DNA from: Pseudomonas phage Baskent_P6
Length of the DNA stretch: 64,000 bases
Reading direction: 5' to 3' (one strand)
Sequence record: PQ415074.1
A program made the translations under genes and the position numbers. This document shows positions 4,197 through 61,378 of the stretch, piece by piece. Position 1 is the first letter of the stretch. Every line of letters starts with the position of its first letter. The notes below the pieces were generated by a model. The model was not told the DNA's origin. It worked only from the letters and a program-made list of their open reading frames with translations, and made no database searches.

Positions 4197-5476
4197 CCAC
4201 CTTCGTCGCTGCGCCTCTCAACCTGAACATCACGCTCCCCTTCAAACTGGCGCCACTGTACGAGGCGCGCCGGTACAAGGTCATGCGTGGTGGGCGCGGC
4301 GGCGGTAAGTCCCATGGCGTGGCCCAGGTGCTGCTCGACATGGGCGCGCGCAACCCCCTGCGCATCCTCTGCGCGCGGGAAATCCAGAAGTCTATGCGCG
4401 ACTCGGTTCACCGGCTGCTGCGCGACTACATCGTCAAGCTCGGCCTGACCGAGTTCTACGAGGTGCTGGACACCGAGATTCGTGGACGCAACGGCACGCT
4501 GTTCCTGTTCTCCGGACTGCAAGGGCACACCGTCGATTCCATCAAGTCCTTTGAGGGCGTGGACATCGTATGGGTGGAAGAAGCCCAGGGCGTGTGCAAG
4601 AAGTCCTGGGATGTGCTGATCCCGACCATCCGCAAGGACGGATCGGAGATATGGCTGACGCTCAACCCGGGGATGGACACCGACGACACCTACGTGCGGT
4701 TCTGCGCCGCGCCGGATGACGACGTGTGGCTCTGCGAAATCAACTGGCGCGACAACCCGTGGTTCCCTGATGTCCTCAACCAGGAGCGCCTGCGCGCCAA
4801 GCGCTCCATGTCGCAGGAGGACTACGAGCACATATGGGAAGGCAAGCCGCGCACCGTGGCCGAGGGTGCCATCTACCGCCATGAAATCCTGGACCTGATG
4901 GAAAGCGGGCGCGTTCGCCCGGTGCCATACGACCCTCTGCTACCCGTCCACACCGTATGGGATTTGGGCTGGAACGACGCCATGACCATCGGCTTTGTCC
5001 AGCGCGGGCCGATGGACGTGCGAATCATCGACTACATCGAGGACAGCCATCGCACGCTGGATTGGTACGTGGCGCAGATCGAGAAACGCCCGTATCGCTG
5101 GGGCATCGACTACCTGCCGCACGACGGTCGTACCCGCAACTACCAGACCGGCAAGAGCACCGAGGAACAGCTACAGGCGATGGGCCGCAAGGTCCACGTC
5201 CTGGCCGCCACCAGCATAGAGGAAGGCATCAAGGCCGTGCGCATGCTGTTCCCGCGCTGCTACTTCGACAAGGACAAGACCGGGCGTCTGGTGGAGTGCC
5301 TGAAGCGCTACCGCCGCGCCCTGCACCAGCATACCGGAGAGGCCATGGCTCCCCTGCACGACGAATACAGCCACGGCTCCGACATGTTCCGCTACGTCGG
5401 CCAGGCCGTGGAAATCATGCCCAACGAAATGGAACGCACCTACGAGGAAGCGGAAGCGCCTGACTGGCGACTGTGA
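4193..5476 (+). CDS. terL: Terminase large subunit (PBSX/Terminase_6-like)
   Basis: Walker A RGGRGGGKS near the N-terminus; 427 aa; gene order. Confidence 0.9.
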   Translation: MTTFVAAPLNLNITLPFKLAPLYEARRYKVMRGGRGGGKSHGVAQVLLDMGARNPLRILCAREIQKSMRDSVHRLLRDYIVKLGLTEFYEVLDTEIRGRNGTLFLFSGLQGHTVDSIKSFEGVDIVWVEEAQGVCKKSWDVLIPTIRKDGSEIWLTLNPGMDTDDTYVRFCAAPDDDVWLCEINWRDNPWFPDVLNQERLRAKRSMSQEDYEHIWEGKPRTVAEGAIYRHEILDLMESGRVRPVPYDPLLPVHTVWDLGWNDAMTIGFVQRGPMDVRIIDYIEDSHRTLDWYVAQIEKRPYRWGIDYLPHDGRTRNYQTGKSTEEQLQAMGRKVHVLAATSIEEGIKAVRMLFPRCYFDKDKTGRLVECLKRYRRALHQHTGEAMAPLHDEYSHGSDMFRYVGQAVEIMPNEMERTYEEAEAPDWRL

Positions 5477-7989: not shown

Positions 7990-9081
7990 ATGAAAAAAGA
8001 CGAGCTTTTCCAAGAGATAGACGGTGGACGGCCGACACCTGAACAGGCTGCCAGGATGATTGAACTGGCAATGGGCGATACCAGCAATTTCATGCTGGAC
8101 AGCGACGAGCCCAACGTCGCAGCCGACGCGGGTGCCGGCGATGCTGGCGAGGCCAGCGCCGATGCCGCCGATCAGGCAGACAACACCGAACAGAACACCG
8201 ACGCGCAGCAGGGTGCGGGTGACGCCGGCGCTTCGGCTGGTGGCGACCAACAGGGCAAGACGCCCGACGCCAAAGAGCTAAACGCCGAGAACGCCGTGAT
8301 CCTGGCCAAGGACGGCAAGCACACCATCGGCTACGAGAAGCTGGTGGAAGCGAGACAGGGAGAACAGCACTGGAAAGCCCAGGCCCAGGCCGCGCAGGCA
8401 GAGCTACAACGCCTGCGGGATGAGGCAGCAGCGCGCGCCACGGCAGGCGAGGCCCCGACGTCGCAGGACAACCAACTGGCGGCGGCTCAGGCTGCCATGG
8501 ATCAGGGGGTTGACCCGGCGATCTTCGGAGACTTCAGCGAGGAAGCGCTGGCCGCAGGCATCCAGAAGCTGATCGACGCGAAAGTGGAAGCGCGCGTGAG
8601 CGCACTCGTGGACCAGAAGCTGGCACCGATCCAGAAGAAGGAAGCCGAGAGCGCCGCGAGCGCCCACCTGAATGCGATCTACGAGGCCCACCCGGACGCC
8701 GACTCCATTGCGGAGAGCAAGGAGTTCGGGGACTGGGTGGCGTCCCGTCCGTCCTATGAGCGCGCGAGCATCGCCAAGGTGCTGGAAGACGGCACCGCGG
8801 CCGATGTCATCGAACTGTTCGGTTCGTTCAAGTCCGCCACCGGAAACGCTCAGCAGTCGCAGCAGCAGCCGAACGCGCAAGACGCGAAGGCTGCGGCCCA
8901 GGCTGCCATCAACAAAGCCAAGACCGAACCGCCGGCCAGTCTCTCGGATATCCCGGGCGGCAAGCCTCCGGCTGGCAACCGATTCGAGGCCATCGCCGCA
9001 ATGGATCCGGCATCCATGTCAGACGCCCTGCGCGGCATGAGCCCCGATCAGGTCGAGGCATTCCTGAACCGGAACATGTAA
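7990..9081 (+). CDS. Scaffolding protein
   Basis: Acidic, Ala/Gln-rich coiled-coil protein between portal and coat. ATG 7990 (MKKDELFQ) chosen inside track ORF 7945..9081. Confidence 0.6.
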   Translation: MKKDELFQEIDGGRPTPEQAARMIELAMGDTSNFMLDSDEPNVAADAGAGDAGEASADAADQADNTEQNTDAQQGAGDAGASAGGDQQGKTPDAKELNAENAVILAKDGKHTIGYEKLVEARQGEQHWKAQAQAAQAELQRLRDEAAARATAGEAPTSQDNQLAAAQAAMDQGVDPAIFGDFSEEALAAGIQKLIDAKVEARVSALVDQKLAPIQKKEAESAASAHLNAIYEAHPDADSIAESKEFGDWVASRPSYERASIAKVLEDGTAADVIELFGSFKSATGNAQQSQQQPNAQDAKAAAQAAINKAKTEPPASLSDIPGGKPPAGNRFEAIAAMDPASMSDALRGMSPDQVEAFLNRNM

Positions 9082-9093
9082 GGGAGCTACCCC

Positions 9094-10386
9094 ATGACCG
9101 CAAGCAAAACCACCATGCGTTACGGTGATCCGAACGCGATGATCCAACAGGCCGCCGGCTTGTTCGCGCTCTGCCAGGGCCGCAACTCGACCCTGAACCG
9201 TCTGACCGGCAAGATGCCGAGCGGCACCAGCGACGCCGAGAAGAAGACCAAGGGCCAGTCGAGCCTGGAGCTTCCCATCGTCCAGGCCCAGGACCTGGGC
9301 CGCAACAAGGGCGACGAGGTGCGTTTCCACTTCGTGCAGCCGGCGAACGCCTTCCCGATCATGGGTAGCGAGTACGCCGAGGGCAAGGGCACTGGCCTGA
9401 AGATCGGCAGCGACCAACTGCGCGTCAACCAAGCCCGCTTCCCGGTGGACCTGGGCGATGTGATGTCGCAGATTCGCAACCCCTACGACCTGCGCCGCCT
9501 CGGCCGTCCGAAGGCGAAGTGGTTCATGGACGCCTATCTGGACCAGTCCATGCTGGTTCACCTGGCCGGCGCCCGTGGTAACCACTACAACAAGGAGTGG
9601 TGCCTCCCGCTGGAGACGCACCCGAAGCTGGCTGACATGCTGGTCAACCGCGTCAAGGCGCCGACCAAGAACCGTCACTTCGTGGCCAGCGCCGATGCCA
9701 TCACTGGCGTTGCGCCGAATGCGGGGGAGTACAACATCACCACCGCCGACGTGCTGGACGTGGATGTGGTCGACTCCATCGCCACCTACATGGACCAGAT
9801 CGAGCTGCCGCCGCCGCCCGTGAAGTTCGAGGGCGACGAGGCCGCTGAGGATTCGCCGATCCGCGTCCTGCTGTGCTCGCCGGCCCAGTACAACAGCTTC
9901 GCCAAGCAGGAGAAGTTCCGTAGTTGGCAGGCTGCCGCACTGGCACGCGCGTCGAACGCCAAGCAGCACCCGATCTTCCGCGTCGATGCGGGCCTGTGGT
10001 CCAACACCCTCATCATCAAGATGCCGAAGCCGATCCGCTTCTACGCGGGCGACACCATCAAGTATTGCGCCGACTACAACTCGGAAGCCGAGTCGAGCGC
10101 CGTGGTGCCGGATAGCTTCGGCAATCAGTACGCGGTGGACCGCGCCCTGCTGCTGGGCGGTCAGGCCCTGGCGCAAGCCTGGGCGGCTTCCGAGCACTCC
10201 GGCATGCCGTTCTTCTGGTCCGAGAAGGACATGGACCACGGCGACAAGCTGGAACTGCTGATCGGCGCGATCCTCGGCTGCTCCAAGATTCGTTTCGCCG
10301 TCGAGGCGACCAACGGCCTGGAGTACACCGACCACGGCGTGATGGCGATCGACACCGCGGTCAAGATCATCGGCCCCCGCAAGTAA
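9094..10386 (+). CDS. Major capsid (coat) protein, P22 coat-like
   Basis: 430 aa right after the scaffold; order and size as for P22 gp5-type coat. Confidence 0.75.
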   Translation: MTASKTTMRYGDPNAMIQQAAGLFALCQGRNSTLNRLTGKMPSGTSDAEKKTKGQSSLELPIVQAQDLGRNKGDEVRFHFVQPANAFPIMGSEYAEGKGTGLKIGSDQLRVNQARFPVDLGDVMSQIRNPYDLRRLGRPKAKWFMDAYLDQSMLVHLAGARGNHYNKEWCLPLETHPKLADMLVNRVKAPTKNRHFVASADAITGVAPNAGEYNITTADVLDVDVVDSIATYMDQIELPPPPVKFEGDEAAEDSPIRVLLCSPAQYNSFAKQEKFRSWQAAALARASNAKQHPIFRVDAGLWSNTLIIKMPKPIRFYAGDTIKYCADYNSEAESSAVVPDSFGNQYAVDRALLLGGQALAQAWAASEHSGMPFFWSEKDMDHGDKLELLIGAILGCSKIRFAVEATNGLEYTDHGVMAIDTAVKIIGPRK

Positions 10387-10444
10387 GCGACAAGGGTCGG
10401 TGATCCCGGCCCTTTCCTTCGTCCAGATTGAAAGGAGGCCCGTT

Positions 10445-10924
10445 ATGGCCCAGTACAAGACCATCCCGCTCGGCGGCCAGTTCGGCGGTGTCACGCCGTA
10501 TGGCAACCTGACCACCCTGCGTTACCAGCTCGCGACCAACGCGGCCGGCGTTCTGCTCAACAGCAATGCCGCCGCCGCGCTGGCGGTTGGCGATGTCGTG
10601 GCGTTCGAGTTCCCGTTGCCCGCCGGCTTCGTCGCCGAAGACCTGCAACTGGTGATTTCCGACCACTTCGGTGCTGGCGTGACCGCTGACGTGGGCTTTG
10701 CCTACGCCGACGGCGTGGACGACGCGACCTATCCGCAGGACGCCGCATATTTCGGCGCTGGCCTGCTGCTGTCGGCCGCTGCGCGCCTGCGCACCAGTTC
10801 CAGCAAGGCGCTGTTCGCGCTGCCCAAGGACGCCAATCTGGTTATCACCATCAAAGGCGCTGCCGTCGCGGAGGCGGGCAAGCTCCAGGTGATCGTCCTC
10901 GGCGAGCGCCTCGGCGCAGTCTAA
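10445..10924 (+). CDS. Hypothetical head protein
   Basis: Strong RBS aaaggagg before ATG 10445; 159 aa. Confidence 0.5.
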   Translation: MAQYKTIPLGGQFGGVTPYGNLTTLRYQLATNAAGVLLNSNAAAALAVGDVVAFEFPLPAGFVAEDLQLVISDHFGAGVTADVGFAYADGVDDATYPQDAAYFGAGLLLSAAARLRTSSSKALFALPKDANLVITIKGAAVAEAGKLQVIVLGERLGAV

Positions 10925-10988
10925 GCGCCGCCGCCCCACGAAGGGCTGGCCCGTGCTGGCCCTTCTGTCACGCAGGAGTAGGACATTC

Positions 10989-11861
10989 ATGAAACCCATC
11001 CTCATCGCCACCATCGCCCACGCGATCAATTCCGCCTACTGCCTCGCCATCGGCGACAAGGTGGCACCACCGTTCGCCGAGTGCCCGGAAGACATGCAGC
11101 GCGGCATCCTGGCCGGCGTGCAACTCCACCTGGACAACCCAGACACCACCCCCGAGCAGTCCCATGAGTCCTGGCTGGCGGACAAGCTGGCCAACGGCTG
11201 GGTCCATGGCGAGGTCAAGGACTTCGAGGCGAAGACGCACCCGTGCTGCGTTCCCTACGCCGAGTTGCCCGAGTCGCAGAAGGTCAAGGACTATCTGTTC
11301 CGCGCCGTGGTTCATGCACTCAAGGACATCCCGGACGCTGGGAGCCTGGACGCCGACGCGCGCGTGGCTGAGTTGCAAGACCAACTCAACGAGGTGCTAG
11401 GCAAGAATGCGGCCCTGGTGGCGCAGATGGCGAGCGACGGCGTTCCCATGCTGGATAACGGCGTGCCCATCAAGTACATCGGCCCGCGGGAAAGCTTCAC
11501 CGACCGCCTGTATGGCTCCGGGCTGATGTTCACCCAAGGGCAGGTGCGTAGCGTGCCCGGCGACCTGGCGCGTCGATTCCTCAACCATCGCGACCTGTTC
11601 AAGCGCTCCACCGGCCCCGCGCCGGCCGGCGACGACACCAAGCAGGTGATCGCGCAGGCTCAGCAGGCCCAGCAGGAGCGCGCTCGCAAGGAGGAAGACC
11701 TATCGGCCCTGCACCGGGAGGTGGACAACTTCGCCGACTTCACCAGCCTGGCGGCATTCGCCAAGGACCGCTACGGCCTGAACCTGGTCAAGCAGCACGG
11801 CTTGGCGCGTTCCCGTGATGCCGTCCACGCGCGCATCGACCAGTTCGGTGGCGCGGTATGA
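10989..11861 (+). CDS. RyR (ryanodine-receptor) domain-containing phage protein
   Basis: N-terminal segment HAINSAYCLAIGDK...ESWLADKLANGWVHGEVKDFEAKTHPCCVPYAELPESQKVKDYLFRAVVHAL matches the RyR-domain pattern. Preceded by the CGCAGGAGT RBS motif. Confidence 0.65.
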   Translation: MKPILIATIAHAINSAYCLAIGDKVAPPFAECPEDMQRGILAGVQLHLDNPDTTPEQSHESWLADKLANGWVHGEVKDFEAKTHPCCVPYAELPESQKVKDYLFRAVVHALKDIPDAGSLDADARVAELQDQLNEVLGKNAALVAQMASDGVPMLDNGVPIKYIGPRESFTDRLYGSGLMFTQGQVRSVPGDLARRFLNHRDLFKRSTGPAPAGDDTKQVIAQAQQAQQERARKEEDLSALHREVDNFADFTSLAAFAKDRYGLNLVKQHGLARSRDAVHARIDQFGGAV

Positions 11862-12535
11862 CGCTGTCCGACCTGATCCGCCGAGTTCGCACGGACGCGA
11901 ACGACATGGTGGAGCCGTATTTCTGGTCGGACCAGGACGTGGCCGACTGGCTCAACGATGCAGTGCGCGAAGCCGCCGTGCGCGGCAGGCTGATCCACGA
12001 GAGCCAGGCCGACGCCGTGTGCCGCACCGAGGTGGTCGCCGGAACTGCCGTCTACCAGTTGCATGCGTCGCTATACGAACTGTCGCACCTGGGCTTCTAC
12101 CCGGCCGATATGTCGCGCCCGACCATGCCGGTGCTGAAGTCGGCCGAGGTGCTGGACGTGGAGCTGCCGGAATGGCGCGCATGCACCGGCAAGCCGCTGT
12201 ACGCAATCCAGGGCGACACTTCGCTGCGCCTGGTGCCAACCCCCGACCGGGCTGGCATTCTGCGCGTGGAGGGCTACCGCACGCCCCTGGCTGACATGGC
12301 GCTGGCCGACAAGGACACCGCGCAGCCGGAGATTCACGCCGAGCACCACCGGCATCTGGTCCAGTGGGCGCTGCATCGCGGCTTCAGCATCCCCGACATG
12401 GAGTCGTTCGATCCGAACCGCGCCGCGCTGGCCGAAGCCGCTTTCACGGCCTACTTCGGCGAGCGCCCCGACTCCGACCTGCGGCGCATCACCCGTGAGG
12501 ATGTTCCTCACCATGTAGAGGCATTCTGGCCATGA
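11858..12535 (+). CDS. Head-tail adaptor/connector-like protein
   Basis: 225 aa, start overlaps upstream stop; position after the head genes. Confidence 0.45.
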   Translation: MTLSDLIRRVRTDANDMVEPYFWSDQDVADWLNDAVREAAVRGRLIHESQADAVCRTEVVAGTAVYQLHASLYELSHLGFYPADMSRPTMPVLKSAEVLDVELPEWRACTGKPLYAIQGDTSLRLVPTPDRAGILRVEGYRTPLADMALADKDTAQPEIHAEHHRHLVQWALHRGFSIPDMESFDPNRAALAEAAFTAYFGERPDSDLRRITREDVPHHVEAFWP

Positions 12536-12738
12536 GCAAGAAGATGAGCGTGGACCTGAAGGTCGGAGAGGTACTGCTGATCGATGGTACTGCCATCCGC
12601 CTGGAAAAGAAGTCCGGGCAGGTGGCGCGCCTGCAGATTTCGGCCGACGAAGGCACCGTTATTCAAAACCCCGCAGCAGCGCGCAGGAGTGCGCTCCAAG
12701 ACCTGGAGCACACCCCTGATGGCAAATACCCTCTATGA
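12532..12738 (+). CDS. Small hypothetical protein (68 aa), translationally coupled
   Basis: ATGA overlap with upstream gene. Contains the GCGCAGGAGTGCG hairpin serving the next gene. Confidence 0.4.
   Translation: MSKKMSVDLKVGEVLLIDGTAIRLEKKSGQVARLQISADEGTVIQNPAAARRSALQDLEHTPDGKYPL
12680..12692 (+). promoter_or_regulatory. GCGCAGGAGTGCG hairpin-embedded Shine-Dalgarno, copy 1 of 3 exact copies (others at 13135..13147 and 18619..18631; weaker CGCAGGAGT at 10970..10978)
   Basis: Exact 13-mer occurs three times, each 3 to 30 nt upstream of a structural-gene start. Stem GCGC/GCGC with AGGAGT loop. Confidence 0.5.
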
Positions 12739-13126
12739 CTATGCCCGCCAGCGCTTCCTGGAGGGCCAGTTCAACTGGATGACCGACACGATCAAGGTGA
12801 TCCTGGTCGATACCGGCGCCTACACGCCGCAGACTGCGATCCACCAGTACCTGTCGGATATCCCGTCGTCGTCCCGGATCGCTGGCCCGGTCACTCTTAC
12901 CGCGAAGACCACCACTGGCGGCGCCGCCGACGGTGCGGATGTGACGTTCACCAGTGTGTCCGGCGCGAGCATCGAGGCAATCATCATCTACAAGGACACC
13001 GGTACCGAGTCCACCAGCCCGCTGATTGCATTCATCGACACGGCTACCGGCCTGCCGATCACCCCCAACGGCGGCGACATCATCGTCACCTGGGATAACG
13101 GCACCAACAAAATCTTCAAGGTCTGA
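12719..13126 (+). CDS. Hypothetical virion protein
   Basis: ATG 12719 (MANTLYDY) inside track ORF 12584..13126; preceded by the GCGCAGGAGTGCG motif. Confidence 0.5.
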   Translation: MANTLYDYARQRFLEGQFNWMTDTIKVILVDTGAYTPQTAIHQYLSDIPSSSRIAGPVTLTAKTTTGGAADGADVTFTSVSGASIEAIIIYKDTGTESTSPLIAFIDTATGLPITPNGGDIIVTWDNGTNKIFKV

Positions 13127-13149
13127 GCGCCTGCGCGCAGGAGTGCGAA

Positions 13150-13575
13150 ATGCAAGGGCATCAACACCCGCACGAGAAGAATGCCGGCTGTCACTGCGTG
13201 GCATGCCGGCCGCTTGAACGCCCCTGTGATTGTGAGGGCTGCATGAGGCTGATGAGTGGCTCGGGCAAGCCGCCAGCGCAGGGTATCGGTGTCAAGGGTA
13301 TCGAGCCCAGGCCCATTGAACTGACGCCGAGCCAGGAAATGTACGTCAACTGGAAGGCTGTAGGCGCCTTGCCTCCGTTCCAGATGTTCGTTCACGAGCA
13401 GGCTCCATGTCCGCCCGACCGCTGCCAGCAGCAGTGGGCTATCGACTACGGTGTGCGCTACGGCGCCCAGGTCGGAGACAGGGTGCTGCTGGAGCGCTAT
13501 GCCCAGTGGCACCAGGCGAAAGGCTACTGGCCAGACGAAACGATCCTCGGTCAACCGGTTGAAGGAGCGAATTAA
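13150..13575 (+). CDS. Cys-rich hypothetical protein (CHCVAC, CDCEGC)
   Basis: 141 aa; RBS embedded in the GCGCAGGAGTGCG motif 3 nt upstream. Confidence 0.5.
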   Translation: MQGHQHPHEKNAGCHCVACRPLERPCDCEGCMRLMSGSGKPPAQGIGVKGIEPRPIELTPSQEMYVNWKAVGALPPFQMFVHEQAPCPPDRCQQQWAIDYGVRYGAQVGDRVLLERYAQWHQAKGYWPDETILGQPVEGAN

Positions 13576-14432
13576 TGGCCGACACCATCGACCTGGACGG
13601 CGAAAAATTCGTCTCTCCATCATTCGTCACCAGTGCGACATCGCTCGACGACATCTATACCGCCTGGGTGGCCGACTTCCAAGGCTCAACGACTGCCTAT
13701 AACCCTAGCTGGCCGAGCACCGATGATAGTGCGACGCTGCTACCAATCCCGCCGTTGTGGACCGGCGGGGCCGATAGGTTGGTTGTTTCAACCGAGTGCG
13801 GTGTGGAGATTGTCCCCTACCAGTTCACCTCGGCCAGTACGCACTACTCACAGGCGATCGCAGGAGTTAGCCGGTACTACTCGATCAACTGCGGGCTGCG
13901 CCTGGCGATTATCTTCCACCCGACTGGTGTCGACTCAGGTATTACCAGCTTTTCGGGCAACTACAACGCCGACCTGGCGCTATTTCGCGGCACGCATAAC
14001 CGATCCAGTGAAAACGTCCAATTCGTGGCGCGTGTCGTTCCGGGCAGGCAAATTGATGTGGCCATCAAGAACACCGCCCAAACTGCTGGACTCCCCATCA
14101 AGCTGGTGGTCCTCAACGGCACCACTGTGGTGTCTTCCACCGACCTGACTACGATCGTTCAGGGTGGTGTCACACTGGTGACATGCTCCATCTACGGTGG
14201 AACCGTCTCGGGCACCGTCGTGGACCAGGCTGGCCAGCCTGCTACCCGCATCGTCCATGTTCACGAGCGCGAAACAGGGTCGGTGATCGGTAGAGGACGC
14301 AGCGACTCATCAGGTCTGTTCGAAATTCCGGTCATCGCGAAGGTGGGTACCACCATGTACGTAGTCGGCCTGGACGATGAGAACTCGCCGCTGATCAACG
14401 CTGTGATCGCCGATCGCATCGTGCTGGAGTAG
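13575..14432 (+). CDS. Virion structural protein (tail-associated)
   Basis: 285 aa, Ser/Thr/Gly-rich beta-type composition; in the tail module. Confidence 0.5.
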   Translation: MADTIDLDGEKFVSPSFVTSATSLDDIYTAWVADFQGSTTAYNPSWPSTDDSATLLPIPPLWTGGADRLVVSTECGVEIVPYQFTSASTHYSQAIAGVSRYYSINCGLRLAIIFHPTGVDSGITSFSGNYNADLALFRGTHNRSSENVQFVARVVPGRQIDVAIKNTAQTAGLPIKLVVLNGTTVVSSTDLTTIVQGGVTLVTCSIYGGTVSGTVVDQAGQPATRIVHVHERETGSVIGRGRSDSSGLFEIPVIAKVGTTMYVVGLDDENSPLINAVIADRIVLE

Positions 14433-14434
14433 CT

Positions 14435-17398
14435 ATGACCACGGGCGTAGAGCTGCGTTTTGACGCAGTACCCAGCGGCTACGTCCCCTCCAGCAGTCGC
14501 AACGTCACGCTGGGTGGCGGCCCGCCGGCGAACCTTCCCGAAGGAACCATCGGAGCTTGGGGCATTCAGCCACCGCTGCTCTCGCGCGATGCCCGGGTAG
14601 TGCGGACAATCCTTCCGGACCCGCACGCATCGGCGGATCTCGACTTCTCTACCGTTGACCCCGGCTACGTGCCGCCAGCGTCCAATGCTGTGCTGCTTCA
14701 GTGGGGTGAGTTGCCGCCGGTAGAGGGCCAAACGGTTTTCCCGGGCGGATTCAGCGATTCCATGGTACCGCCACCGGCGATCCGTACTCAGTATCGCTTT
14801 GTGTTGCCTGTAGGATCGTCGCACCAAGTGTTCGGCGCCGCCAAGGCTTGGAAGTACAGCACGTTCGTTTCGGCCTACGGCTTCAATTCGAACGTCATCG
14901 GATCCCACAACGCACAGAACAAGCACCGAACGGTTCAGCCGACCGGATTTGTCGCCTACCAAAGCGGGCAGGCGAACATCATCAACCGAAACCGCTATGT
15001 GGCGGCCGGCAACATTGCGCCGCCGCCGTGGGGCGCGAATCCCACGGTTTGGCTGTACACCCGCTACCTGAAGCCTGGCGGCCTACTGGCGACCGCGATC
15101 CCGGATGTCCACCGCATCAGCCACGAACGCCAGTTCGTGCAGCTCAATGCTGGTGTTCCAGCGCCAGGCATGGGGACGGCATGGGTCAGTCAGGGAACGC
15201 GCGTTCTGGAGCCCATTGGCACGTTTCTGGATGCCGTGGCCAGACCTATGGTCGGCGGCACGCGCTTCTTGGAGCCGCCAGGCTGGGATTCCTCGGCATT
15301 CGGCACGCGGATCATTCCCGAGTCGCAGACGGTCGCGCCTCAAGGCTTCGCCGAGTTGTGGGGGCAGCAGGCGATCAACAACTGGCTCACCTTTGCCGAG
15401 CCGGCCGGATTCCAGAGCACCGTCCAGGAAGAATACCGCTGGGGCCGCGCAGACGTGTGGAACCTGCGCCAGTACGTGGTCCAGGAGTACGACCCGGACA
15501 GCGAGTTGAACCCGCCACCCTGGTCGCAGTGGACGCTGGTGGAGAACCGAAACCGTCAAGTGGGCACCATCGGCATGCCTTCGCCGCCAGCCGGCTTCCC
15601 GCAGATCGACAACAATGCCAGGCCGATCCTGCCAGGCGGCGTGGCGCCGCCGCAGATCACCACCGCAGCCATGATTGCCTACGGCCGCCGTTACCTGCCG
15701 CTGGAAGGCATCGAACCGCCGCCGATCCTGAATTGGCATGCCGTCTACAACGGCGCGAGGGTGTTGGTGCCGACCGGGAATGCGCAAAGCGCTTTCGGTG
15801 TTGCGAGACTGGAGAACACGCGGCGTTACTTCGACCGCATCGGCGGCTTCGACTCGGCGGATATCGGCATCGCGTTCATCGATTTCGCCATTCGCGGTAT
15901 CAGCATCGAGCCGCGCTACAGCATCGAGCCGCCGGATATCAAGTTGCCCGAGGTCAAGCTGTACACGCGCTATGTCGATCCGGCAAGCAACGACATGCTG
16001 AACATGGGCCTGGCGGCTCTGTCGATCCACTTCAACGCGATCGGGCCGAGGTGGGCGCACAAAGACCTGTTCGGCGATCCGCGCATCCACAACGTGACGC
16101 CGGAGGTCGCGACCTTCGGGGCGAACGCCGAGGAATTCGGTTCGGCCTTCGTGCGCCTGCAATGGCGTCCGGTGGCGCCGGACGGCAGCAACATGCAGTT
16201 GTTCGGCCAGGCAAAGATCGCCGACCGCAAGCAGACCATCACGGTTCCAGGCACCAACCTGCTCAGGATGGGCGACAAGCTGGTGGTGACCAAGACCGGC
16301 GCGCCGCCGTACTCGCCGCAGAACATCATGGTTGATCAGGCGGTTAACACCGGAGCGGTGCTCGGAAAGCCCGGTCTGAATCAGTACGTCCTGTACGCGA
16401 CAGGCATCCGGGCGCCGGACATCGAGGAGCCAACGGTGCGCATCATGGGCGTGAACATCGACGCTGGCATCAAGGTGGACGGCTACGGCATGCCAGCCGT
16501 GAGCTTGAAGCTGCGCAAGCTGACGGTGGACGAGTGGCCCGATGCTGAAGTGTTCCAGCCATCCAAGCCGCGCATCACGCCGCACACCATCTGGGCGGTG
16601 AAGGAGGCACCCGAGCAGGCTAAGCAGAACCATCCAGCCGGTAACCTGCACTATGTAGGGGAAACGCTGGTTTATCCTCCGGGCGAGCGGTTCGGCTCGG
16701 CGCGCATCAGCACCTACTTGGGCATCCTCAAGCCATTCCCGCTGGGCGACGTGTCGAAGGTGGGTGAGCACGCGATCTACCTGAAACGTCGCTACCTAGA
16801 GCCGCGGGGTCTGCAGGCGTATCGCATGGGGTGGGCGATCGTGGGTGATGGCACCCAGTTCGTGGCGCAGTTCGCCGGTGCTGATTCGATGTCACTGGGG
16901 GCGCCTGCTGTAGCCCGTGGCCCCTACTACGGCCCGCAAACGGTTCGGCCTGCTGGTCTGCTGGCCCCTGGCCCAGGTGGGGCGACATGGGTATCGCTGC
17001 TGGATCGTCGACTCCAGATGACCGGACTCTCGTCGCTGGCTATGGGGTATTCGCGTGGAGAGGGTCCGTACCAGTGGCAGTCGCTGCATGTTGGGCCGCC
17101 GATGCCGACCATTCCAAGCGGTACCGACACATCAGCATTCGGCACAGCCTGGGTTTCGCTGCGGGTACGAGGGGTTGAGCCGGACGGCTGGGAGTCGTTC
17201 ATCTGCGAATACGACCCGTCGCACTTCGCGGATCGCATGCGAGTCCGCAACGTCTTCATCCCACCGGGTCCAAATGCCCAGTCCGTGGCACCTGTAGGGT
17301 TGGATTCAGTGGGTGTGGGCGTGCCCAATGTGCGGCCAGGTGTCCACTACATCCGCCCTGACGGCAACGCCGATCAGTACCGCAAAGGAGCCTTCTGA
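14435..17398 (+). CDS. Large virion structural protein (987 aa) with recurring R-x-LEP-x-G motifs
   Basis: Repeats TRVLEPIG, TRFLEPPG, RRYLPLEGIEPPP, KRRYLEPRG, RVRGVEPDGW read in the translation. Confidence 0.55.
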   Translation: MTTGVELRFDAVPSGYVPSSSRNVTLGGGPPANLPEGTIGAWGIQPPLLSRDARVVRTILPDPHASADLDFSTVDPGYVPPASNAVLLQWGELPPVEGQTVFPGGFSDSMVPPPAIRTQYRFVLPVGSSHQVFGAAKAWKYSTFVSAYGFNSNVIGSHNAQNKHRTVQPTGFVAYQSGQANIINRNRYVAAGNIAPPPWGANPTVWLYTRYLKPGGLLATAIPDVHRISHERQFVQLNAGVPAPGMGTAWVSQGTRVLEPIGTFLDAVARPMVGGTRFLEPPGWDSSAFGTRIIPESQTVAPQGFAELWGQQAINNWLTFAEPAGFQSTVQEEYRWGRADVWNLRQYVVQEYDPDSELNPPPWSQWTLVENRNRQVGTIGMPSPPAGFPQIDNNARPILPGGVAPPQITTAAMIAYGRRYLPLEGIEPPPILNWHAVYNGARVLVPTGNAQSAFGVARLENTRRYFDRIGGFDSADIGIAFIDFAIRGISIEPRYSIEPPDIKLPEVKLYTRYVDPASNDMLNMGLAALSIHFNAIGPRWAHKDLFGDPRIHNVTPEVATFGANAEEFGSAFVRLQWRPVAPDGSNMQLFGQAKIADRKQTITVPGTNLLRMGDKLVVTKTGAPPYSPQNIMVDQAVNTGAVLGKPGLNQYVLYATGIRAPDIEEPTVRIMGVNIDAGIKVDGYGMPAVSLKLRKLTVDEWPDAEVFQPSKPRITPHTIWAVKEAPEQAKQNHPAGNLHYVGETLVYPPGERFGSARISTYLGILKPFPLGDVSKVGEHAIYLKRRYLEPRGLQAYRMGWAIVGDGTQFVAQFAGADSMSLGAPAVARGPYYGPQTVRPAGLLAPGPGGATWVSLLDRRLQMTGLSSLAMGYSRGEGPYQWQSLHVGPPMPTIPSGTDTSAFGTAWVSLRVRGVEPDGWESFICEYDPSHFADRMRVRNVFIPPGPNAQSVAPVGLDSVGVGVPNVRPGVHYIRPDGNADQYRKGAF

Positions 17399-18588
17399 TG
17401 GCCACGACTTCCCTGGTGCCGCTGGCCGGCATCAACAACGTCGCCGAAGATGCCGCGCTGCAACGCGGCGGCGAGAGCCCGAGGCTCTATGTGCGTGACG
17501 CGGTGAACATAGACCTGTCGCCGGCCGGCAAGGCGCAACTGCGGGCCTCTTCGCGCCAGGTCACGGACCAGCCGTTCCGCCAACTCTGGCAAAGCCCACT
17601 GCACGGCGACGCCTTCGGCGCCCTGGGCGACCAGTGGGGAAAGGTCGATCCGCATTCATGGACGTTCGAGCCGCTCGCACAGATCGGCGAAGGGGACCTG
17701 TCCCACGAGGTGCTGAACAATCGGGTGTGCGTCGCCGGAACGGCGGGCATCTTCACCTACGATGGCGCGAAGGCCGAGCGCTTGACGCTGGACACCCCGG
17801 CGCCGCCGCTGCTGGTGGCAGGCGCCGGATCGTTGAGTCAAGGCACCTACGGCGCGGCTGTGGCGTGGCTGCGCGGCCCCCAAGAGTCGGCGCCGTCGCT
17901 GATCGCCTTCGCGGACGTGACCGATGCCGGCGCGCTGGAAGTCACCTTTCCGCTGTGCCTGGATGCCAGCGTTACCGGCGCGCGCCTCTACCTGACGCGA
18001 GCGAATGGCGGCGAGTTGCTGTTGGCCGGCGACTACCCGCTGGGCGCGGCCACGCTCATCCTGCCGACGCTACCGGAGCTGGGTCGACCGGCGCAGTTCC
18101 GCCACCTGTCGCCCATGCCCACCGGCAAGTACCTGGCGTACTGGCGCGGGCGCCTGCTGACCGCGCGCGCTAACGTGCTGCGATTCTCCGAAGCGCTGAC
18201 GTACCACCTGCATGATGAGCGTTACGGGTTCGTGCAGATGCCCCAGCGCATTACCTTCCTGCAGCCGGTGGACGGCGGGATCTGGGTGGGGCAGGTTGAT
18301 CACGTCGCCTTTCTCGATGGTATCGACCCGGCAAGCCTGAGCGTGTCGCGCCGTGCATCGCGGGCTCCGGTGCCTGGTAGTGCGATCCTGGTCCCCGCCG
18401 AGGCGGTAGGCACCAACGCATCACCGGATGGCTCGCCGGTCGCCGTGTGGCTGGCGGAGAACGGCTACGTCATGGGCACCAGCAGTGGCGCCATCGCCGA
18501 AGTTCATGCGGGCGTGCTCACCGGTATCACCGGCCGTGCCGGTACCTCTGTAGTGTTCGACCGCCGTCTGCTGACGGCTGTAAGCTGA
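17398..18588 (+). CDS. Virion structural protein
   Basis: 396 aa; ATGA overlap with upstream gene. Confidence 0.55.
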   Translation: MATTSLVPLAGINNVAEDAALQRGGESPRLYVRDAVNIDLSPAGKAQLRASSRQVTDQPFRQLWQSPLHGDAFGALGDQWGKVDPHSWTFEPLAQIGEGDLSHEVLNNRVCVAGTAGIFTYDGAKAERLTLDTPAPPLLVAGAGSLSQGTYGAAVAWLRGPQESAPSLIAFADVTDAGALEVTFPLCLDASVTGARLYLTRANGGELLLAGDYPLGAATLILPTLPELGRPAQFRHLSPMPTGKYLAYWRGRLLTARANVLRFSEALTYHLHDERYGFVQMPQRITFLQPVDGGIWVGQVDHVAFLDGIDPASLSVSRRASRAPVPGSAILVPAEAVGTNASPDGSPVAVWLAENGYVMGTSSGAIAEVHAGVLTGITGRAGTSVVFDRRLLTAVS

Positions 18589-18655
18589 ATCACCCCGAAT
18601 ATCGGGCCTTCAATCGCTGCGCAGGAGTGCGGCATGGGACTTCGGAGAGAACCCT

Positions 18656-19246
18656 ATGCAACGCATTAGCAGCGCTCTGCGCAAAGAACTGGCCGCCGAC
18701 CTGGCCACTGGTAGCTTCGACATCACCGAAAACGGCATTGCCTTCCCGCGGCTCAGCGTACTGGCCGGTGGCGAATACTTCGGCCGCATCAACAGCGGCG
18801 AGTGGGAGAAGGAAGGTGACAACCTGATCCCCACCGAGGGCCTGGCGCACATCCTCAACATTGCGCTGGGCAGCAAGCCCAAGGTGTCGTATTTCCTGGC
18901 CCTGTTCGCCGGGACGGCAGCACCTGCTGCCAACTGGACCGCCGCCAACTTCGCCGCGGTGGCCTCGGAGATCACCAGCATGACCGAGGGTTACACCAGC
19001 GCTACCCGCCCAGCCTGGACGCCGACCGATACCGCTACCGGTTCCATCGACAACATGAACGCGGTCGCGACCGTAACCATCGCCACGGCGTCGCAACTCA
19101 ACGTCAACGGCGCCGCGTTGCTGACCAACAGCACCAAGGGTGGCACCACGGGTGCGCTGGTATCGGCGTCGAAGTACGCGGCGACTCGTGTGTTCCAGAA
19201 CGGCGACACCTACGATATCGGCTACCGGCTGAACCTGACTGTCTAA
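18656..19246 (+). CDS. Virion structural protein
   Basis: 196 aa; GCGCAGGAGTGCG motif 25 nt upstream (18619..18631). Confidence 0.5.
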   Translation: MQRISSALRKELAADLATGSFDITENGIAFPRLSVLAGGEYFGRINSGEWEKEGDNLIPTEGLAHILNIALGSKPKVSYFLALFAGTAAPAANWTAANFAAVASEITSMTEGYTSATRPAWTPTDTATGSIDNMNAVATVTIATASQLNVNGAALLTNSTKGGTTGALVSASKYAATRVFQNGDTYDIGYRLNLTV

Positions 19247-19250
19247 GCCG

Positions 19251-21848
19251 ATGTATTCGCCGCGCCCCTACGGACGTTTCGCGGAAGACGCGGAGCTTTC
19301 CGCCGACGATGCCGCCGCTGTCGAGCGGCTGGCCAGGAACCTGACGAACTTCAAGCAGGCGTCTGACCTCGCCAACCTGAAGCGCGTTGCGGGCCTGCCC
19401 AGCGGCCGGCAGGCGGTGGCCATCGACATGGGCGGAGTGTTTCGCATCCTGGTGCTCGAGCAGCATGAGCTTCCGCAATTCCGTTTCGACGGGGTGGCAC
19501 AGACCAACATCCCCATGCTGTTCTCCGGCGTCATCACCCGCGCCCAGGTGCTGACCGATGGGCAGGGCGTTGGCATAAGGTTGACCGAGCAGGCCCGGCG
19601 CCGGCTGGTGGCCTACGACCCGAAAGCGGCGCTTCCGCCGAAGGACGTGGCGTTGCAACGCTTCGTCATCAAGTACGAACCTCGTTTCCAATACTTCGAG
19701 CCGCGCGAGCAGGGCATCTACACATTCACTCAGTACGTCAAGCAGCGCCCGACCTGGTACAGCGGCGCCATGGCCGAGGTCATGCAGGTGGCTGGCGGAT
19801 ATGGGCGGCAGGTCATGGCCGAACTGCCAGAGGACGACCTTGAGCGCGCAAGGATGCTGATTCCTGAGCGCTACATGCACCGCATCCGCCAGGAAGTCGG
19901 CAACGTTCGGCTGCCGGCCTACACAGGCTTTCCGGACGAGCAAGGCCAGTTCAAATGTGACTACCTCGCCAGCCGCTGCAACGCCGTCGCTTTCGATGCC
20001 GGCAACAGTCCGTGGTTGCTGCAGATCAATGCGCGGGGCGTCTACGCGATGCCGCTTCCTGTGGTGCCGGCCACCACCACCGAGGCTTTCCGTGACTACG
20101 TGCTGGATGTTGGTGACGACGAGCTGCTGAAGCTTCTGGACCGCTTCGGCGGCATGCCTACTGGTGAGGGGTTCCCACAGCCGGAACAGGAGTTCGAGGC
20201 GTGGCGCCGGGCCGGCGTCATCGTCAAGGTCTGCGACACCGCCGACTTCTACAATTTCGAGGCCATGTACGCGGCGTGTGGCTGGGCGGTGAACAGCCGA
20301 GGCACCGAGGGCTTCAACACCTGCTGGACCTATGACGACGCCGGCCTGATGCAGGTCCATGCGTACAAGATGAGTCTGTCGCTGGCCCCGGCGGAGAACC
20401 AGGGGCGACTGAAGAACACCTGGAATTTCGATGATCCAGACGATGCAGCGAAACTCAACGCCTACCTGGCCCAGGTCTATGGCGCGCTGACCGATGGCAC
20501 CGCCAGAGAACTGGCCATCAAGTATAAGATTCGGCGGGTGCCGGCTGGTGAGATTCTCTCGCGCGCCTCTTCGGCCAGCGGCCCGGATCTGGACTACTGG
20601 GACAGCCTGGAACTACCTCCCATCGCCACCCACCAGGGCCGAGTGTCGCGCGTCGCCAGTGGCCCTTTCTACTGGCCGTCCAAGGTCTTGAAGTCCTGCA
20701 CCCGCCTGAAGTTCCCCGAACTGACGGGGCAGGGGTGCGAGTCCTTCCCGCACATCTCGCCCGACTATTCCGGCGGCGCAGTGAAGTGCGACACCATAGT
20801 CTTCGGCTGCTATGTCGAGGACCAATTGCGTGTCATCAAGTATTTCTACGACGAACGCAAGTTCCAGCAGGAAACGACAAGTACGTTCGAGCAGTACATG
20901 ATCGTCGGCCAGTGGGAGAAGACCGAGACCTTCGGCCTCAGCGGGCTGATGGGGTTCTTCTACACGACCGACTTCGACGATCGGCAGGAGCAGCCGGCGG
21001 TAACGGTCCATACCAACATCGTCGGCACCGATATGGGCTACGGCAACCCGGCTTACTCCACTCCGCCGACGCTTTGGTGCGTCGGCGGCGTGAGCCGGTC
21101 CAGGTATTACATGCACCGCACCACGGTAGACACTACCGAGACGTTTACCCTGGACGTGGCGGCGCTGGTGCCGGTGTTCGAGCGCGATTGCATGCTCTAC
21201 GCCTACCAGGACCATACCGGGGGACGCAGTTCCCACGAGGAAACGACGCAGGGCTCTGTGCCTGATCCCACGTCCTACGAACTCTGGTGCTACGACGACA
21301 TCTGGCACTGGATGGGGCAGACGCGGAACGGGAACCGGGGCGACCCGCCATCCAAGGATGGGGTGCCTGTCTATGTCGACACGCTGGTCTACAGCCCCAC
21401 CGAAATCAGCGACTTCGCCGAGAGTGGCAACTGGCTGAACCTGCCACCTGGCGGGTTTCTGGATGTCACGGGCATCTGTGGGCCGTACACCTACCGCAAC
21501 TCCGTCCACAACGCCAACGGCGTCATCATCGGCGGCGAGGCGCCAGGCTTCGATCCGTACCGGAAGGACACCCAGTACCCCAACGAGAGTAGCGGGCGCC
21601 TGAGTGTGTGCCTGTCCGTGGCCGGCGCTGTTCAGGTCAACAAGGACATGCCGCACTCGTGGTACTGGGGCTTCTCGCCCGAGAACGACTTTTACTTCTA
21701 CCGCGACGCCGTGCATGTCGCCATCGGCGACGCCCGGTACGCCAGCATCTACGAGACGGGCCAGGATGGACTGCGCCGCCGCTGGGGGCATACCGCACTT
21801 GCCGATCACAAGGCGGCCCACCACTTCATAGGGGTTATCAATGAGTGA
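19251..21848 (+). CDS. Large tail protein (865 aa), possibly tail fibre/spike
   Basis: Size and position; no motif confirmed. Confidence 0.5.
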   Translation: MYSPRPYGRFAEDAELSADDAAAVERLARNLTNFKQASDLANLKRVAGLPSGRQAVAIDMGGVFRILVLEQHELPQFRFDGVAQTNIPMLFSGVITRAQVLTDGQGVGIRLTEQARRRLVAYDPKAALPPKDVALQRFVIKYEPRFQYFEPREQGIYTFTQYVKQRPTWYSGAMAEVMQVAGGYGRQVMAELPEDDLERARMLIPERYMHRIRQEVGNVRLPAYTGFPDEQGQFKCDYLASRCNAVAFDAGNSPWLLQINARGVYAMPLPVVPATTTEAFRDYVLDVGDDELLKLLDRFGGMPTGEGFPQPEQEFEAWRRAGVIVKVCDTADFYNFEAMYAACGWAVNSRGTEGFNTCWTYDDAGLMQVHAYKMSLSLAPAENQGRLKNTWNFDDPDDAAKLNAYLAQVYGALTDGTARELAIKYKIRRVPAGEILSRASSASGPDLDYWDSLELPPIATHQGRVSRVASGPFYWPSKVLKSCTRLKFPELTGQGCESFPHISPDYSGGAVKCDTIVFGCYVEDQLRVIKYFYDERKFQQETTSTFEQYMIVGQWEKTETFGLSGLMGFFYTTDFDDRQEQPAVTVHTNIVGTDMGYGNPAYSTPPTLWCVGGVSRSRYYMHRTTVDTTETFTLDVAALVPVFERDCMLYAYQDHTGGRSSHEETTQGSVPDPTSYELWCYDDIWHWMGQTRNGNRGDPPSKDGVPVYVDTLVYSPTEISDFAESGNWLNLPPGGFLDVTGICGPYTYRNSVHNANGVIIGGEAPGFDPYRKDTQYPNESSGRLSVCLSVAGAVQVNKDMPHSWYWGFSPENDFYFYRDAVHVAIGDARYASIYETGQDGLRRRWGHTALADHKAAHHFIGVINE

Positions 21849-60317: not shown

Positions 60318-60689
60318 TCAGGAAACAGCAGTGCAGTTGCGCAGCAGCACCGGCGTGGCCTGACCTTCTAGCCAGATCACCGCCATGCCGGAGGCGGAAA
60401 CTTTGGCTTGAGTGAGCGTTCTGGTGCGGATGGGGATGGAGTCGCGGAGCGGACGGTACTCAACGGCCACCTGGGCCGGGTGCGTGCGATTCCACTCTTC
60501 AACCAGGTCTTTGGGTGAGGCGGACCGGACGGCGCCAACCCGGGCGTAGATCTCGGCGCGATGAATGGCCATCGCTTCCGGAGCAACGATTCCGAGGCGG
60601 ATCTGGCCGCCTCTGTTCTCGACGACGGTCACGGTGATGTCGTCGCCAATGTGCAGGGTTTCGCCGACTCGGCGAGTGAGGATCAGCAT
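60318..60689 (-). CDS. CsrA/RsmA-family RNA-binding protein homolog with about 70-aa C-terminal extension
   Basis: [48 protein letters not shown] matches the CsrA fold sequence (MLILTRR.GE...IG..I.V.V......VR.GI.AP....I.R.EIY). RBS ggagg. Confidence 0.7.
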
Positions 60690-60723: not shown

Positions 60724-60936
60724 TCAAGCCGGCTCGCAGTGGGAAAGGGCAACGCAACCAGACACGCCCGCGAGCCAGACGACAGCGGTGTGGCCGCCGA
60801 GGACCTGGGCTTCGGTTGTCGTCCGGGTGCGCTTCGGCGTGGCGTGGCGATGAAACCGATAGTTGACCTCGGTGCCGGCGGGGTATGCGGAATTCCAGGC
60901 AGCAACGGTCGCCGCCGGGTTGGCGTTTCGCTTCAT
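60724..60936 (-). CDS. Hypothetical small protein (70 aa)
   Basis: Internal ATG of track ORF 60724..61203. Confidence 0.3.
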   Translation of the reverse strand: MKRNANPAATVAAWNSAYPAGTEVNYRFHRHATPKRTRTTTEAQVLGGHTAVVWLAGVSGCVALSHCEPA

Positions 60937-61153
60937 CGTGTGTCTCCGGATAGAGTTCGGTGGGGCTGGTGATGCCCTGCTACGGGCAGGGCTGCGGGTT
61001 AAAGCGGGAAGGCCGCACGCACGCTGCCAGCTCGAATAAAGAGAATCGCCAGCTTGCGAACCTTCAGATACTTGGCTCTTGTCTGGCGGCCGCTGCGGCT
61101 CAGCTTGTCCATTTCGCCAACCCAAGCGTTGTAGATGTTCAGCGCGTAGTTGC

Positions 61154-61378
61154 TCATGTCCTTTCCTCGGTGATGCCCCGGCGAACCGGGGCAGTGTTCT
61201 CACAGGCGTAACAAATTCCGGTAGCCGTCACCCCCAGGCGCCCACACTCGGGGCAGCTCGCATCGCTGCGCACCTGCTCCTGCGCCTCCTCGTAGCAACC
61301 ATCGCAGCGGAATCCGTCGGACGTCTCGATCACGCGACCGGGCGCGTTGCACCGGTCGCATTCGTGAATGATTGTCAT
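61154..61378 (-). CDS. Small double Zn-ribbon protein (74 aa)
   Basis: CDRC...CDGC and CPEC...CYAC. Confidence 0.5.
   Translation of the reverse strand: MTIIHECDRCNAPGRVIETSDGFRCDGCYEEAQEQVRSDASCPECGRLGVTATGICYACENTAPVRRGITEERT

Follow-up and report, generated by a model that had tools for sequence, protein, structure and literature searches.

A conserved hairpin motif in translation-initiation regions of Pseudomonas phage Baskent_P6, predicted to be the operator of a small CsrA-like protein

A stretch of 64,000 nucleotides of Pseudomonas phage Baskent_P6 (sequence record PQ415074.1), hereafter called the window, was analysed for a short repeated motif, GCGCAGGAGTGCG, that precedes three genes of the morphogenesis operon. 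By its sequence, the window is that of an F116-like Pseudomonas aeruginosa phage, with 97–99% identity of its 10–20 kb stretch to phages PA8, LKA5, H66 and F116 (genus Hollowayvirus), and the gene coordinates used here were carried over from the H66 and LKA5 annotations. The motif occurs exactly three times in the window, always on the + strand. Copy 1 (12681–12693, with the core GCGCAGGAGUGC) lies within the 3′ end of a + strand open reading frame (ORF) at 12532–12738, which encodes a small divergent CsrA-family protein of 68 amino acids (phrog_8397, from profile matches), the candidate cognate RNA-binding regulator. It stands 25 nt before the ATG at 12719 of the next gene (12719–13126, + strand; phrog_644, 135 amino acids, a 'minor tail subunit' in some records), the product of which has an N-terminus, MANTLYD, that is conserved across 80 loci. 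Copy 2 (13135–13147) precedes the gene at 13150–13575 (+ strand; phrog_11163, 141 amino acids), the ATG of which begins 2 nt past the 13-mer, so that the AGGAG in the loop is the Shine–Dalgarno (SD) sequence of this start. Copy 3 (18619–18631) is intergenic and follows the head-closure gene, with 24 nt between it and the annotated ATG at 18656 of the gene at 18656–19246 (+ strand; phrog_8123, 196 amino acids).

The starts behind copies 1 and 3 have SD sequences of their own, GGAG at 12705–12708 for ATG 12719 and GGAG at 18644–18647 for ATG 18656, and the distance from the GGAG of the motif to the AUG is about 30 nt at both. Only copy 2 is located where a plain SD would be, 4–10 nt upstream of a used start. 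A first-pass annotation, made from the letters of the window alone, had reported the three exact copies, all immediately 5′ of start codons, and had named a repeated strong ribosome-binding site (RBS) as the outcome that would undo its own proposal of a CsrA site. The copies are confirmed on the + strand, with the first shifted by one base from the 12680–12692 given there; the immediate proximity to a start codon holds for copy 2 and not for copies 1 and 3, and two of the three copies are not SD sequences, which argues against the repeated RBS. In the H66 record, the AGGAG of copy 1 (12685–12689) is assigned to the next gene as its RBS, despite a distance of 29 nt from the start codon; the real SD behind this copy is the GGAG at 12705–12708. 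The AGGAG of copy 2 was also marked as an RBS by the H66 authors.

The 13- or 14-mer folds into a small hairpin with predicted free energies between −4.9 and −6.8 kcal/mol and z scores of about −3.3 to −3.5, in either of two registers, GCGCA-GGAG-UGCGC or GCGC-AGGA-GUGC with a G·U pair, and in the predicted fold of all three copies in the window the GGA is exposed in the loop of this short hairpin, as the first-pass annotation had proposed. The core GCGCANGAGTGC is present three times against 0.20 expected, and none of 100 shuffles reached three. The earlier estimate that chance would produce such a triple with an expectation well below 0.01 was, however, overstated, since six different 13-mers occur at least three times in the window and Markov models predict 0.2–1.1 such 13-mers. 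The other recurring 13-mers (at 4459, 12145, 22392, 23586 and elsewhere), which include CGAGGTGCTGGAC with four copies and CAGCAGCAGATCG, CCGCGCCGGCCGG and GGTGGTGATCGAC with three copies each, presumably reflect codon bias. It is the comparative data, and not the k-mer statistics, that show the element to be real.

For this comparison, 80 viral loci were retrieved through the neighbouring phrog_644 gene and 80 loci through a profile of the small CsrA-like protein. The conservation in related phages that the first-pass annotation had proposed to check was found: the 12-nt core GCGCANGAGUGC is kept at the same places in relatives down to about 35% protein identity. In phages 8P, USP_25 and Dartukuta and in dozens of IMG/VR contigs, the sequence conserved at sites 1, 2 and 3 is GCGCANGAGUG[C/U], with diverging flanks, and the core persists in contigs of 40–46% GC. 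In phage 8P (about 72–77% DNA identity), site 2 is the exact GCGCAGGAGTGCG and sites 1 and 3 are GCGCATGAGTGCG. At site 1, dozens of diverged loci have GCGCA[G/U/A/C]GAGUGC in the corresponding position, and the site 3 orthologs read GCGCA[G/U/A]GAGUGCGGCAU. Sites 1 and 3 carry UGAG, AGAG or CGAG in 8P, USP_25, Dartukuta and many IMG/VR contigs, and only the G-A of the GGA is invariant. The coding strand is strongly preferred, with 118 motifs on the + strand and two on the − strand in the phrog_644-chosen loci and 53 and two, respectively, in the protein-chosen loci. The bases of site 1 are read as ARRSA or ARMSA in some lineages and in another frame, as AQECA or AHECA, in others, which indicates a constraint on the nucleic acid and not on the protein. 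A scan of genome contigs gave four prophage loci, two of which contain the motif. The Rfam 15 scan of 9000–20000 returned no relevant match at E values up to 10, only noise, and pairing of the motif with ribosomal RNA was rejected as no complementarity to the Escherichia coli 16S, 23S or 5S rRNA was found.

The surroundings of 88 distinct cassettes were sorted into two classes. Class I, to which copy 2 belongs, comprises about 20 cassettes. The 12-mer is followed after 1–6 nt by the start codon, its loop is the SD, and G is the sole base seen at the variable position N; the downstream genes differ among phages. In class II, which includes copies 1 and 3, 20–50 nt separate the motif from the start, and most minimum-free-energy folds have the AUG in a paired state; the motif either pairs with the spacer between SD and AUG or lies against a hairpin in which the AUG is buried. 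Spacer partners typically read GGAGCACUC...AUG; in two uncultured loci the pairs are GGAGUGCC with GGCACUCC (L134) and AAGAGUGC with GCACUCUU (L121). Where N is paired it co-varies with its partner (U-A in 19 cases, G-C in 11 and A-U in three), and the duplex of the motif with its own initiation region has a mean energy of −8.7 kcal/mol compared with −5.7 kcal/mol for 501 other SD-bearing initiation regions of the same loci (p = 1e-11). The distance from the class II loop to the GGA of the proximal SD has a median of 23 nt (interquartile range 21–30 nt; 16–33 nt in most cassettes), with copies 1 and 3 at 19–20 nt upstream of this GGA.

At site 1, a long hairpin on the + strand (12684–12718), in which CAGG, GUG and GCUCCA pair with UGGAGC, CAC and CCUG, buries the SD at 12705–12708 and abuts the start at 12719. 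Its minimum free energy is −24.7 kcal/mol (z = −3.77), none of 200 shuffles was as stable and its architecture recurs in relatives. RNAalifold on a MAFFT alignment of the site 1 cassettes recovered the invariant local hairpin alone; the long helix is missed by the alignment because the loop lengths differ, and it was assessed sequence by sequence. Directly after copy 3, a + strand hairpin at 18632–18659, in which GCAUGGG pairs with CCCUAUGC, buries the start at 18656–18658 and holds the SD (18644–18647) in its loop; in the predicted fold, the local hairpin of the motif is stacked on this helix. The RNAalifold consensus of this helix has four pairs with compensatory changes, with 92.1% paired cells against 84.7% in shuffled alignments and a covariation score of 0.20 against 0.095, values that were reached in none of 500 shuffles for either measure. 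The ATG at 18634, right after copy 3, opens an 11-codon ORF (MGLRREPYATH*, 18634–18669) that overlaps the real start at 18656. It was rejected as a conserved upstream ORF since 8P, USP_25 and Dartukuta have ATA in place of the ATG, and it is probably a by-product of a G·U-compatible change in the AUG-burying helix.

The ORF at 12532–12738 matches phrog_8397, 'CsrA-like regulator', with an E value of 3e-34, and a profile built from 18 members of the small-protein family matches RsmE (2jpp) at 4.6e-5 and CsrA (1y00) at 2.5e-3. A bona fide CsrA homolog of the RsmM type, with a C-terminal extension, is encoded on the − strand at 60318–60689 (PF02599, E value 5e-22); it also matches phrog_8397, at 7e-5, and on these matches the phage appears to have two CsrA-family genes. 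The motif travels with the small gene. Among the phrog_644-chosen loci (n = 80), 53 contain both gene and motif, 25 contain neither, one has the gene only (L060) and one has the motif only (Fisher p = 1.8e-18, with kinship ignored). The last of these is a truncated contig (L072), whose relative L057 has the gene about 3.5 kb upstream. In none of the gene-less phrog_644-chosen loci was a motif found at the site 2 or site 3 position, and the tie between gene and motif holds at separations of 1.4–3.4 kb (L057, L125, L137 and L139). In distant protein-chosen loci, the motif lies 19–240 nt downstream of the CsrA-like gene, before a capsid-like ORF, and is followed by an SD-sequestering hairpin. The motif is, in sum, a sense-strand RNA element in translation-initiation regions that is tied to a CsrA-family gene.

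Bcep22- and Skulduggery-type phages contain a canonical form of the element, GCGCNGGAUGUGC, which separates the CsrA-like gene from the capsid gene; in cultured phages the order is portal ... CsrA-like gene, motif, major capsid gene. The sequence at this place is GCGCAGGAUGUGC in Bcep22, where GGCACAUCC immediately precedes the AUG, and GCGCUGGAUGUGC in Skulduggery, and each of the two has a complementary GCACAUCC or GCAUAUCUGG before the AUG; three further loci (L144, L150 and L151) read GCGCAGGA(A/U)GUGC. The 13-nt canonical variant can be written GCGC-NGGAW-GUGC, while the F116-type 12-nt core is GCGC-ANGA-GUGC, with a 4-bp stem including a G·U pair and a tetraloop. The consensus obtained for CsrA by systematic evolution of ligands by exponential enrichment (SELEX) is RUACARGGAUGU. 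The canonical version is comparable to it, which suggests that the F116-type 12-mer is a one-base-shorter derivative of a canonical CsrA operator.

The residue equivalent to Arg44 of CsrA was read from an alignment of all of the small proteins and compared with the nearest motif. A GGA motif accompanies 13 of the 14 proteins with Arg at this position and seven of the 38 without it (Fisher p = 1.4e-6), and in clusters at 70% identity the figures are 8/9 with Arg and 7/22 without. Proteins that lack the Arg44 equivalent are mostly found beside motifs in which N is U, A or C. Binding requires Arg44, by which the first G of GGA is recognised (PMC7366521). This first G is exactly the position that has turned into N in the 12-mer. 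Bcep22, Skulduggery and some other lineages have retained the Arg, and the equivalent residue in the window protein is Asn (in IQNP). One uncultured contig (L093) has two CsrA-like genes, at 2202–2402 and 6738–6953, of which the one without the Arg44 equivalent adjoins an AAGAG motif and the one with Arg adjoins an AGGAG motif; in the same contig, one gene is preceded by two motifs in tandem with a spacing of 30 nt (13718–13760).

From these data we propose, with a probability of roughly 0.55, that the motif is a CsrA-type translational operator of the operon's own small CsrA-like protein and not a plain RBS; both the binding of the protein to the motif and its repressive effect are predictions from sequence comparison. 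The element would mark the 5′ edge of the initiation regions of a few genes of the morphogenesis operon, with the small CsrA-family protein from 12532–12738 as the most likely trans-acting factor. A dimer of this protein may dock on the hairpin loop with one face and reach the GGA of the proximal SD with the other. The CsrA dimer can reportedly bridge a range that covers this loop-to-GGA distance, as Mercante and co-workers are said to have found in 2009, and because the median of 23 nt falls within the range of a dimer, canonical dual-site repression is the most economical reading. At class I sites such as copy 2, binding would directly occlude the SD, whereas at class II sites, which the model places 20–37 nt upstream of the start, initiation would be repressed as is usual for CsrA, and the outcome may be dosage or feedback control of specific late proteins. 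An alternative for copies 1 and 3, suggested by analogy, is an activation like that by Com of phage Mu, in which the protein would hold the motif in its local hairpin and so free the start region. Plain translational coupling with the upstream ORF is certainly also at work at copy 1.

Several observations weigh against this proposed operator function. The ORF at 12532–12738 is translated straight through the site 1 hairpin, and coupling without any protein could suffice there. Pfam, PF02599 included, gave no match to this ORF at E < 0.01. The AlphaFold2 monomer model of the 68-residue protein, from a shallow alignment, is mediocre, with a mean predicted local distance difference test (pLDDT) score of 68.8; it has four strands (the last at residues 31–39) and one helix, broadly like the five-strand-plus-helix layout of CsrA, and a Foldseek search of the PDB with this monomer found no significant match and no CsrA. 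A weak monomer model and the lack of a Foldseek match are expected of an intertwined dimer, and they give no support. A search for homologous proteins gave seven close relatives only. Site 1 lies mostly in or beside the CsrA-like gene, which inflates the co-occurrence, and both the co-occurrence and the Arg–GGA statistics are phylogenetically non-independent; the Arg–GGA signal fades with single-linkage clustering at 60% identity. The folds of sites 2 and 3 in the window are no more stable than those of shuffled sequences, and the motif stem is invariant, which leaves the local hairpin without support from covariation. Finally, the window protein carries Asn although its three motifs carry GGA, and it is one of the seven exceptions to the Arg–GGA rule, which leaves room for binding by RsmM or RsmA as well in the Baskent_P6 lineage.

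The last point bears on the partners favoured by the first-pass annotation, which had assigned the hairpins the architecture of CsrA sites and had named the CsrA homolog at 60318..60689, or host RsmA, as their possible regulator. That the hairpins are sites of canonical CsrA-family proteins (host RsmA or RsmN, or phage RsmM) that occlude ribosome binding on late mRNA would agree with the AGGA/GGAG in all three loops of the window, with the retention of LILTRR at the N-terminus and of HRAEIY (Arg44) in the RsmM at 60318–60689, and with the potential of every AGGAG SD to act as a CsrA site of low affinity. The architecture itself stands in so far as a short GC stem presents A-G-G-A, but conservation of the GGA breaks down at sites 1 and 3: the orthologous sites of 8P, USP_25, Dartukuta and many contigs have lost it and show UGAG, AGAG or CGAG, which speaks against selection by canonical CsrA, RsmA or RsmM. 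In Dartukuta, UGAG is found at site 1 and AGAG at site 3 even though this phage has a canonical CsrA gene. Moreover, the motif follows the small ORF at 12532–12738 and not RsmM, which is present in unrelated siphophages and in phi297, where the small gene and the motif are both absent; 8P, USP_25 and USP_18 were not among the RsmM matches listed (60 of 87). On this sequence evidence RsmM and host RsmA appear unlikely as primary partners, and we consider an explanation of the hairpins by canonical CsrA proteins alone to be improbable. A device acting in cis without a dedicated protein is somewhat easier to entertain, but still doubtful. In it, the motif would provide a constant 5′ arm to helices in which the initiation region is sequestered and which would set a low basal translation or enforce coupling, with ribosomes on the upstream ORF melting the helix, and the tetraloop would be a kinetic or alternative fold. 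The very stable site 1 hairpin (−24.7 kcal/mol, z = −3.77), the end of the upstream ORF 19 nt past the next start, the complementarity of the motif to the initiation region with the covariation of N, and the covariation in the AUG-burying helix of site 3 all fit such a device. A structural arm should, however, drift together with its partner, yet 11 of the 12 bases are invariant over hosts of 40%–66% GC and at three genes, and the class I copies pair with nothing and are equally conserved. Sites 2 and 3 are intergenic, so they are not traversed by an upstream ribosome, and the co-occurrence with the gene at distant sites and the Arg–G coupling are left unexplained.

A double-stranded DNA site, such as an operator or a late-promoter element of a phage DNA-binding protein, would account for the near-palindromic half-sites, GCGCA-N4-TGCGC, and for the position of two copies between genes in a late operon that has few such gaps, one of them after a terminator-like hairpin. 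We regard it as very unlikely in view of the extreme strand bias, with an orientation that is fixed relative to the starts, the conservation of the asymmetric centre (GAG), the use of the element as an SD in class I and the RNA complementarity, with covariation, to the downstream spacer; in addition, a sigma-70 promoter scan of 9–20 kb returned zero sites. It is scarcely credible, finally, that the motif is nothing more than a strong RBS amid GC-rich sequence, with copies that arose by chance or by local duplication. The six 13-mers with at least three copies in the window and the RBS labels of the H66 annotation at copies 1 and 2 would be in keeping with this, but the SD distance is found at copy 2 only, the core is present three times against 0.2 expected, and this reading is contradicted by how deeply the motif is conserved, by its two reading frames and by its co-occurrence with the small gene.

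Among known systems, the proposed operator resembles most directly the leader sites of CsrA and RsmE (RsmE–hcnA and CsrA–glgC), in which a short GC stem presents A-(N)-G-G-A at or just upstream of the SD and a second GGA lies at the SD, a spacing that is 16–33 nt in most class II cassettes; the SELEX core CA-GGAUGU is matched by the Bcep22 sequence GCGCAGGAUGUGC. Unlike in cellular CsrA sites, the F116-type loop is one base shorter and its first G is free (ANGA), and whereas cellular sites have degenerate flanks, the phage motif is invariant at 11 of 12 bases, stem included. The presumed phage protein also differs from cellular CsrA in that it lacks Arg44 in many lineages and is encoded in cis in the morphogenesis operon. 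We know of no sponge small RNA for the phage element. The control of hag by CsrA and FliW in Bacillus subtilis is similar in that a CsrA-family protein is encoded within a structural-gene operon and that an upstream hairpin site is combined with an SD site. It controls a self-assembling subunit, and the candidate target in Bcep22- and Skulduggery-type phages is likewise the major capsid gene immediately downstream, whereas the F116-type candidate targets are three small genes and not the capsid gene. To our knowledge, no FliW-like antagonist has been identified for the phage system. In the Com–mom system of phage Mu, a small protein binds a hairpin that is directly followed by a stem in which SD and AUG are buried, a geometry like that of the class II copies 1 and 3; however, Com is a zinc-finger activator, whereas the protein here is predicted to be of the CsrA family and its binding at class I sites could only repress. 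The coat–replicase operators of MS2 and PP7 are, like class I copy 2, small sequence-specific hairpins that hold the RBS of another phage gene, with the binding being predicted in our case. They differ in the fold of the protein and in being present as one operator per RNA-phage genome, compared with a multi-copy motif in double-stranded DNA phages.

Homologs of CsrA on mobile elements have been described as RsmM in P. aeruginosa phages, RsmQ on plasmids and CsrT/Lpp0168 in Legionella (PMC7366521, PMC8450108, PMC9928087 and bioRxiv 10.64898/2026.02.27.708469), and phage csrA genes have been read as morons, that is as accessory genes dispensable for phage growth, or as hijackers of host regulons (PMC7366521, PMC8450108 and PMC9144972). 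RsmM, RsmQ and CsrT are near-canonical, retain Arg44 and are thought to hijack host GGA regulons, whereas the small protein of the morphogenesis operon is far more divergent and has a dedicated, element-internal motif. In the literature on phage csrA genes and CsrA operators, no RNA target was found to be described and the motif string appeared in no relevant paper. What would be new relative to known CsrA-type translational control is that it is internal to the phage, that it uses a dedicated, near-invariant operator and that the specificity for GGA is relaxed, with the functions being predicted. A wider proposal, to which we give a little under even odds, is that many podophage lineages (F116-, 8P-, Bcep22- and Skulduggery-like, and uncultured) carry a self-contained circuit of a mini-CsrA and its near-invariant operator inside the virion-assembly operon, with the operator located at the starts of the capsid gene or of other late genes, that the specificity of protein and RNA has co-evolved and that the loss of Arg44 freed the first G. 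If so, the phage circuit would be insulated from the Csr/Rsm system of the host and would provide an assembly-linked dosage control like the CsrA–flagellin homeostasis.

The analysis offers a concrete candidate target, an operator-like hairpin of 12–13 nt that travels with a small CsrA-like gene and lies on defined starts of late genes. If the predicted function is correct, this would be the first phage-internal CsrA circuit and a natural case of altered CsrA specificity, with ANGA replacing GGA, coupled to the loss of Arg44. It may then also serve as a compact orthogonal protein–RNA pair for synthetic translational control, the 'CsrA moron' of Bcep22 and JC1 would be reinterpreted as a regulator of the capsid gene, and the RBS features and start codons annotated around copies 1–3 would need correction.

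The late region around the motif contains, by transferred annotation, the genes for the major capsid protein (9094–10386), a structural protein (10400–10924), an RyR-domain protein (10989–11861) and an adaptor (11858–12535), then, beyond copy 2, genes at 13575–14432 and 14435–17398, the head-closure gene (17398–18588) and, beyond the gene behind copy 3, a gene at 19251–21848. The first-pass annotation had taken the genes downstream of the motif to be virion genes. The products of all three, and also the CsrA-like ORF, are absent from the virion proteins of H66 that were verified by mass spectrometry, among which their neighbours (capsid, adaptor, the product of 13575–14432 and head closure) are found; this absence fits low-dosage products. 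The gene behind copy 2 begins with a Cys-rich segment of about 35 residues (CHCVAC...CDCEGC, 13150–13255) that has no counterpart in the 8P homolog; its start is placed at 13252 in LKA5, and the PHROG profile match begins at residue 14.

The fourth, related sequence CGCAGGAGT of the first-pass annotation is present, one base from its reported position, as the 9-mer CGCAGGAGU at 10971–10979 on the + strand, upstream of the RyR-domain gene. It was rejected as a member of the motif family since it matches the core at nine of 12 positions and forms no local hairpin, and it is an ordinary SD region. Shortly before it, after the structural gene at 10400–10924, lies a strong GC-rich hairpin (GAAGGGCUGGC...GCUGGCCCUUC, 10940–10965), which the H66 annotation gives as a terminator and which 8P has at the corresponding position; it probably terminates transcription in part and so would set the ratio of capsid to downstream transcripts. 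A terminator scan of 9–20 kb gave six terminator-like matches, all on the − strand, against 6.3 expected from shuffles. A small + strand hairpin, CCCGA-N3-UCGGG (18594–18606), lies just past the stop of the head-closure gene, upstream of copy 3; it is conserved in relatives, with a variable loop.

The CsrA homolog at 60318–60689 belongs to the RsmM subfamily, which is listed for F116 and H66 (PMC7366521). Its C-terminal extension of about 65 residues is homologous to the C-terminus of the product of the upstream ORF at 60724–61203 (− strand), with 43% identity in tblastn; both ORFs match phrog_9165, and the domain that they share is thus fused to CsrA in the former.

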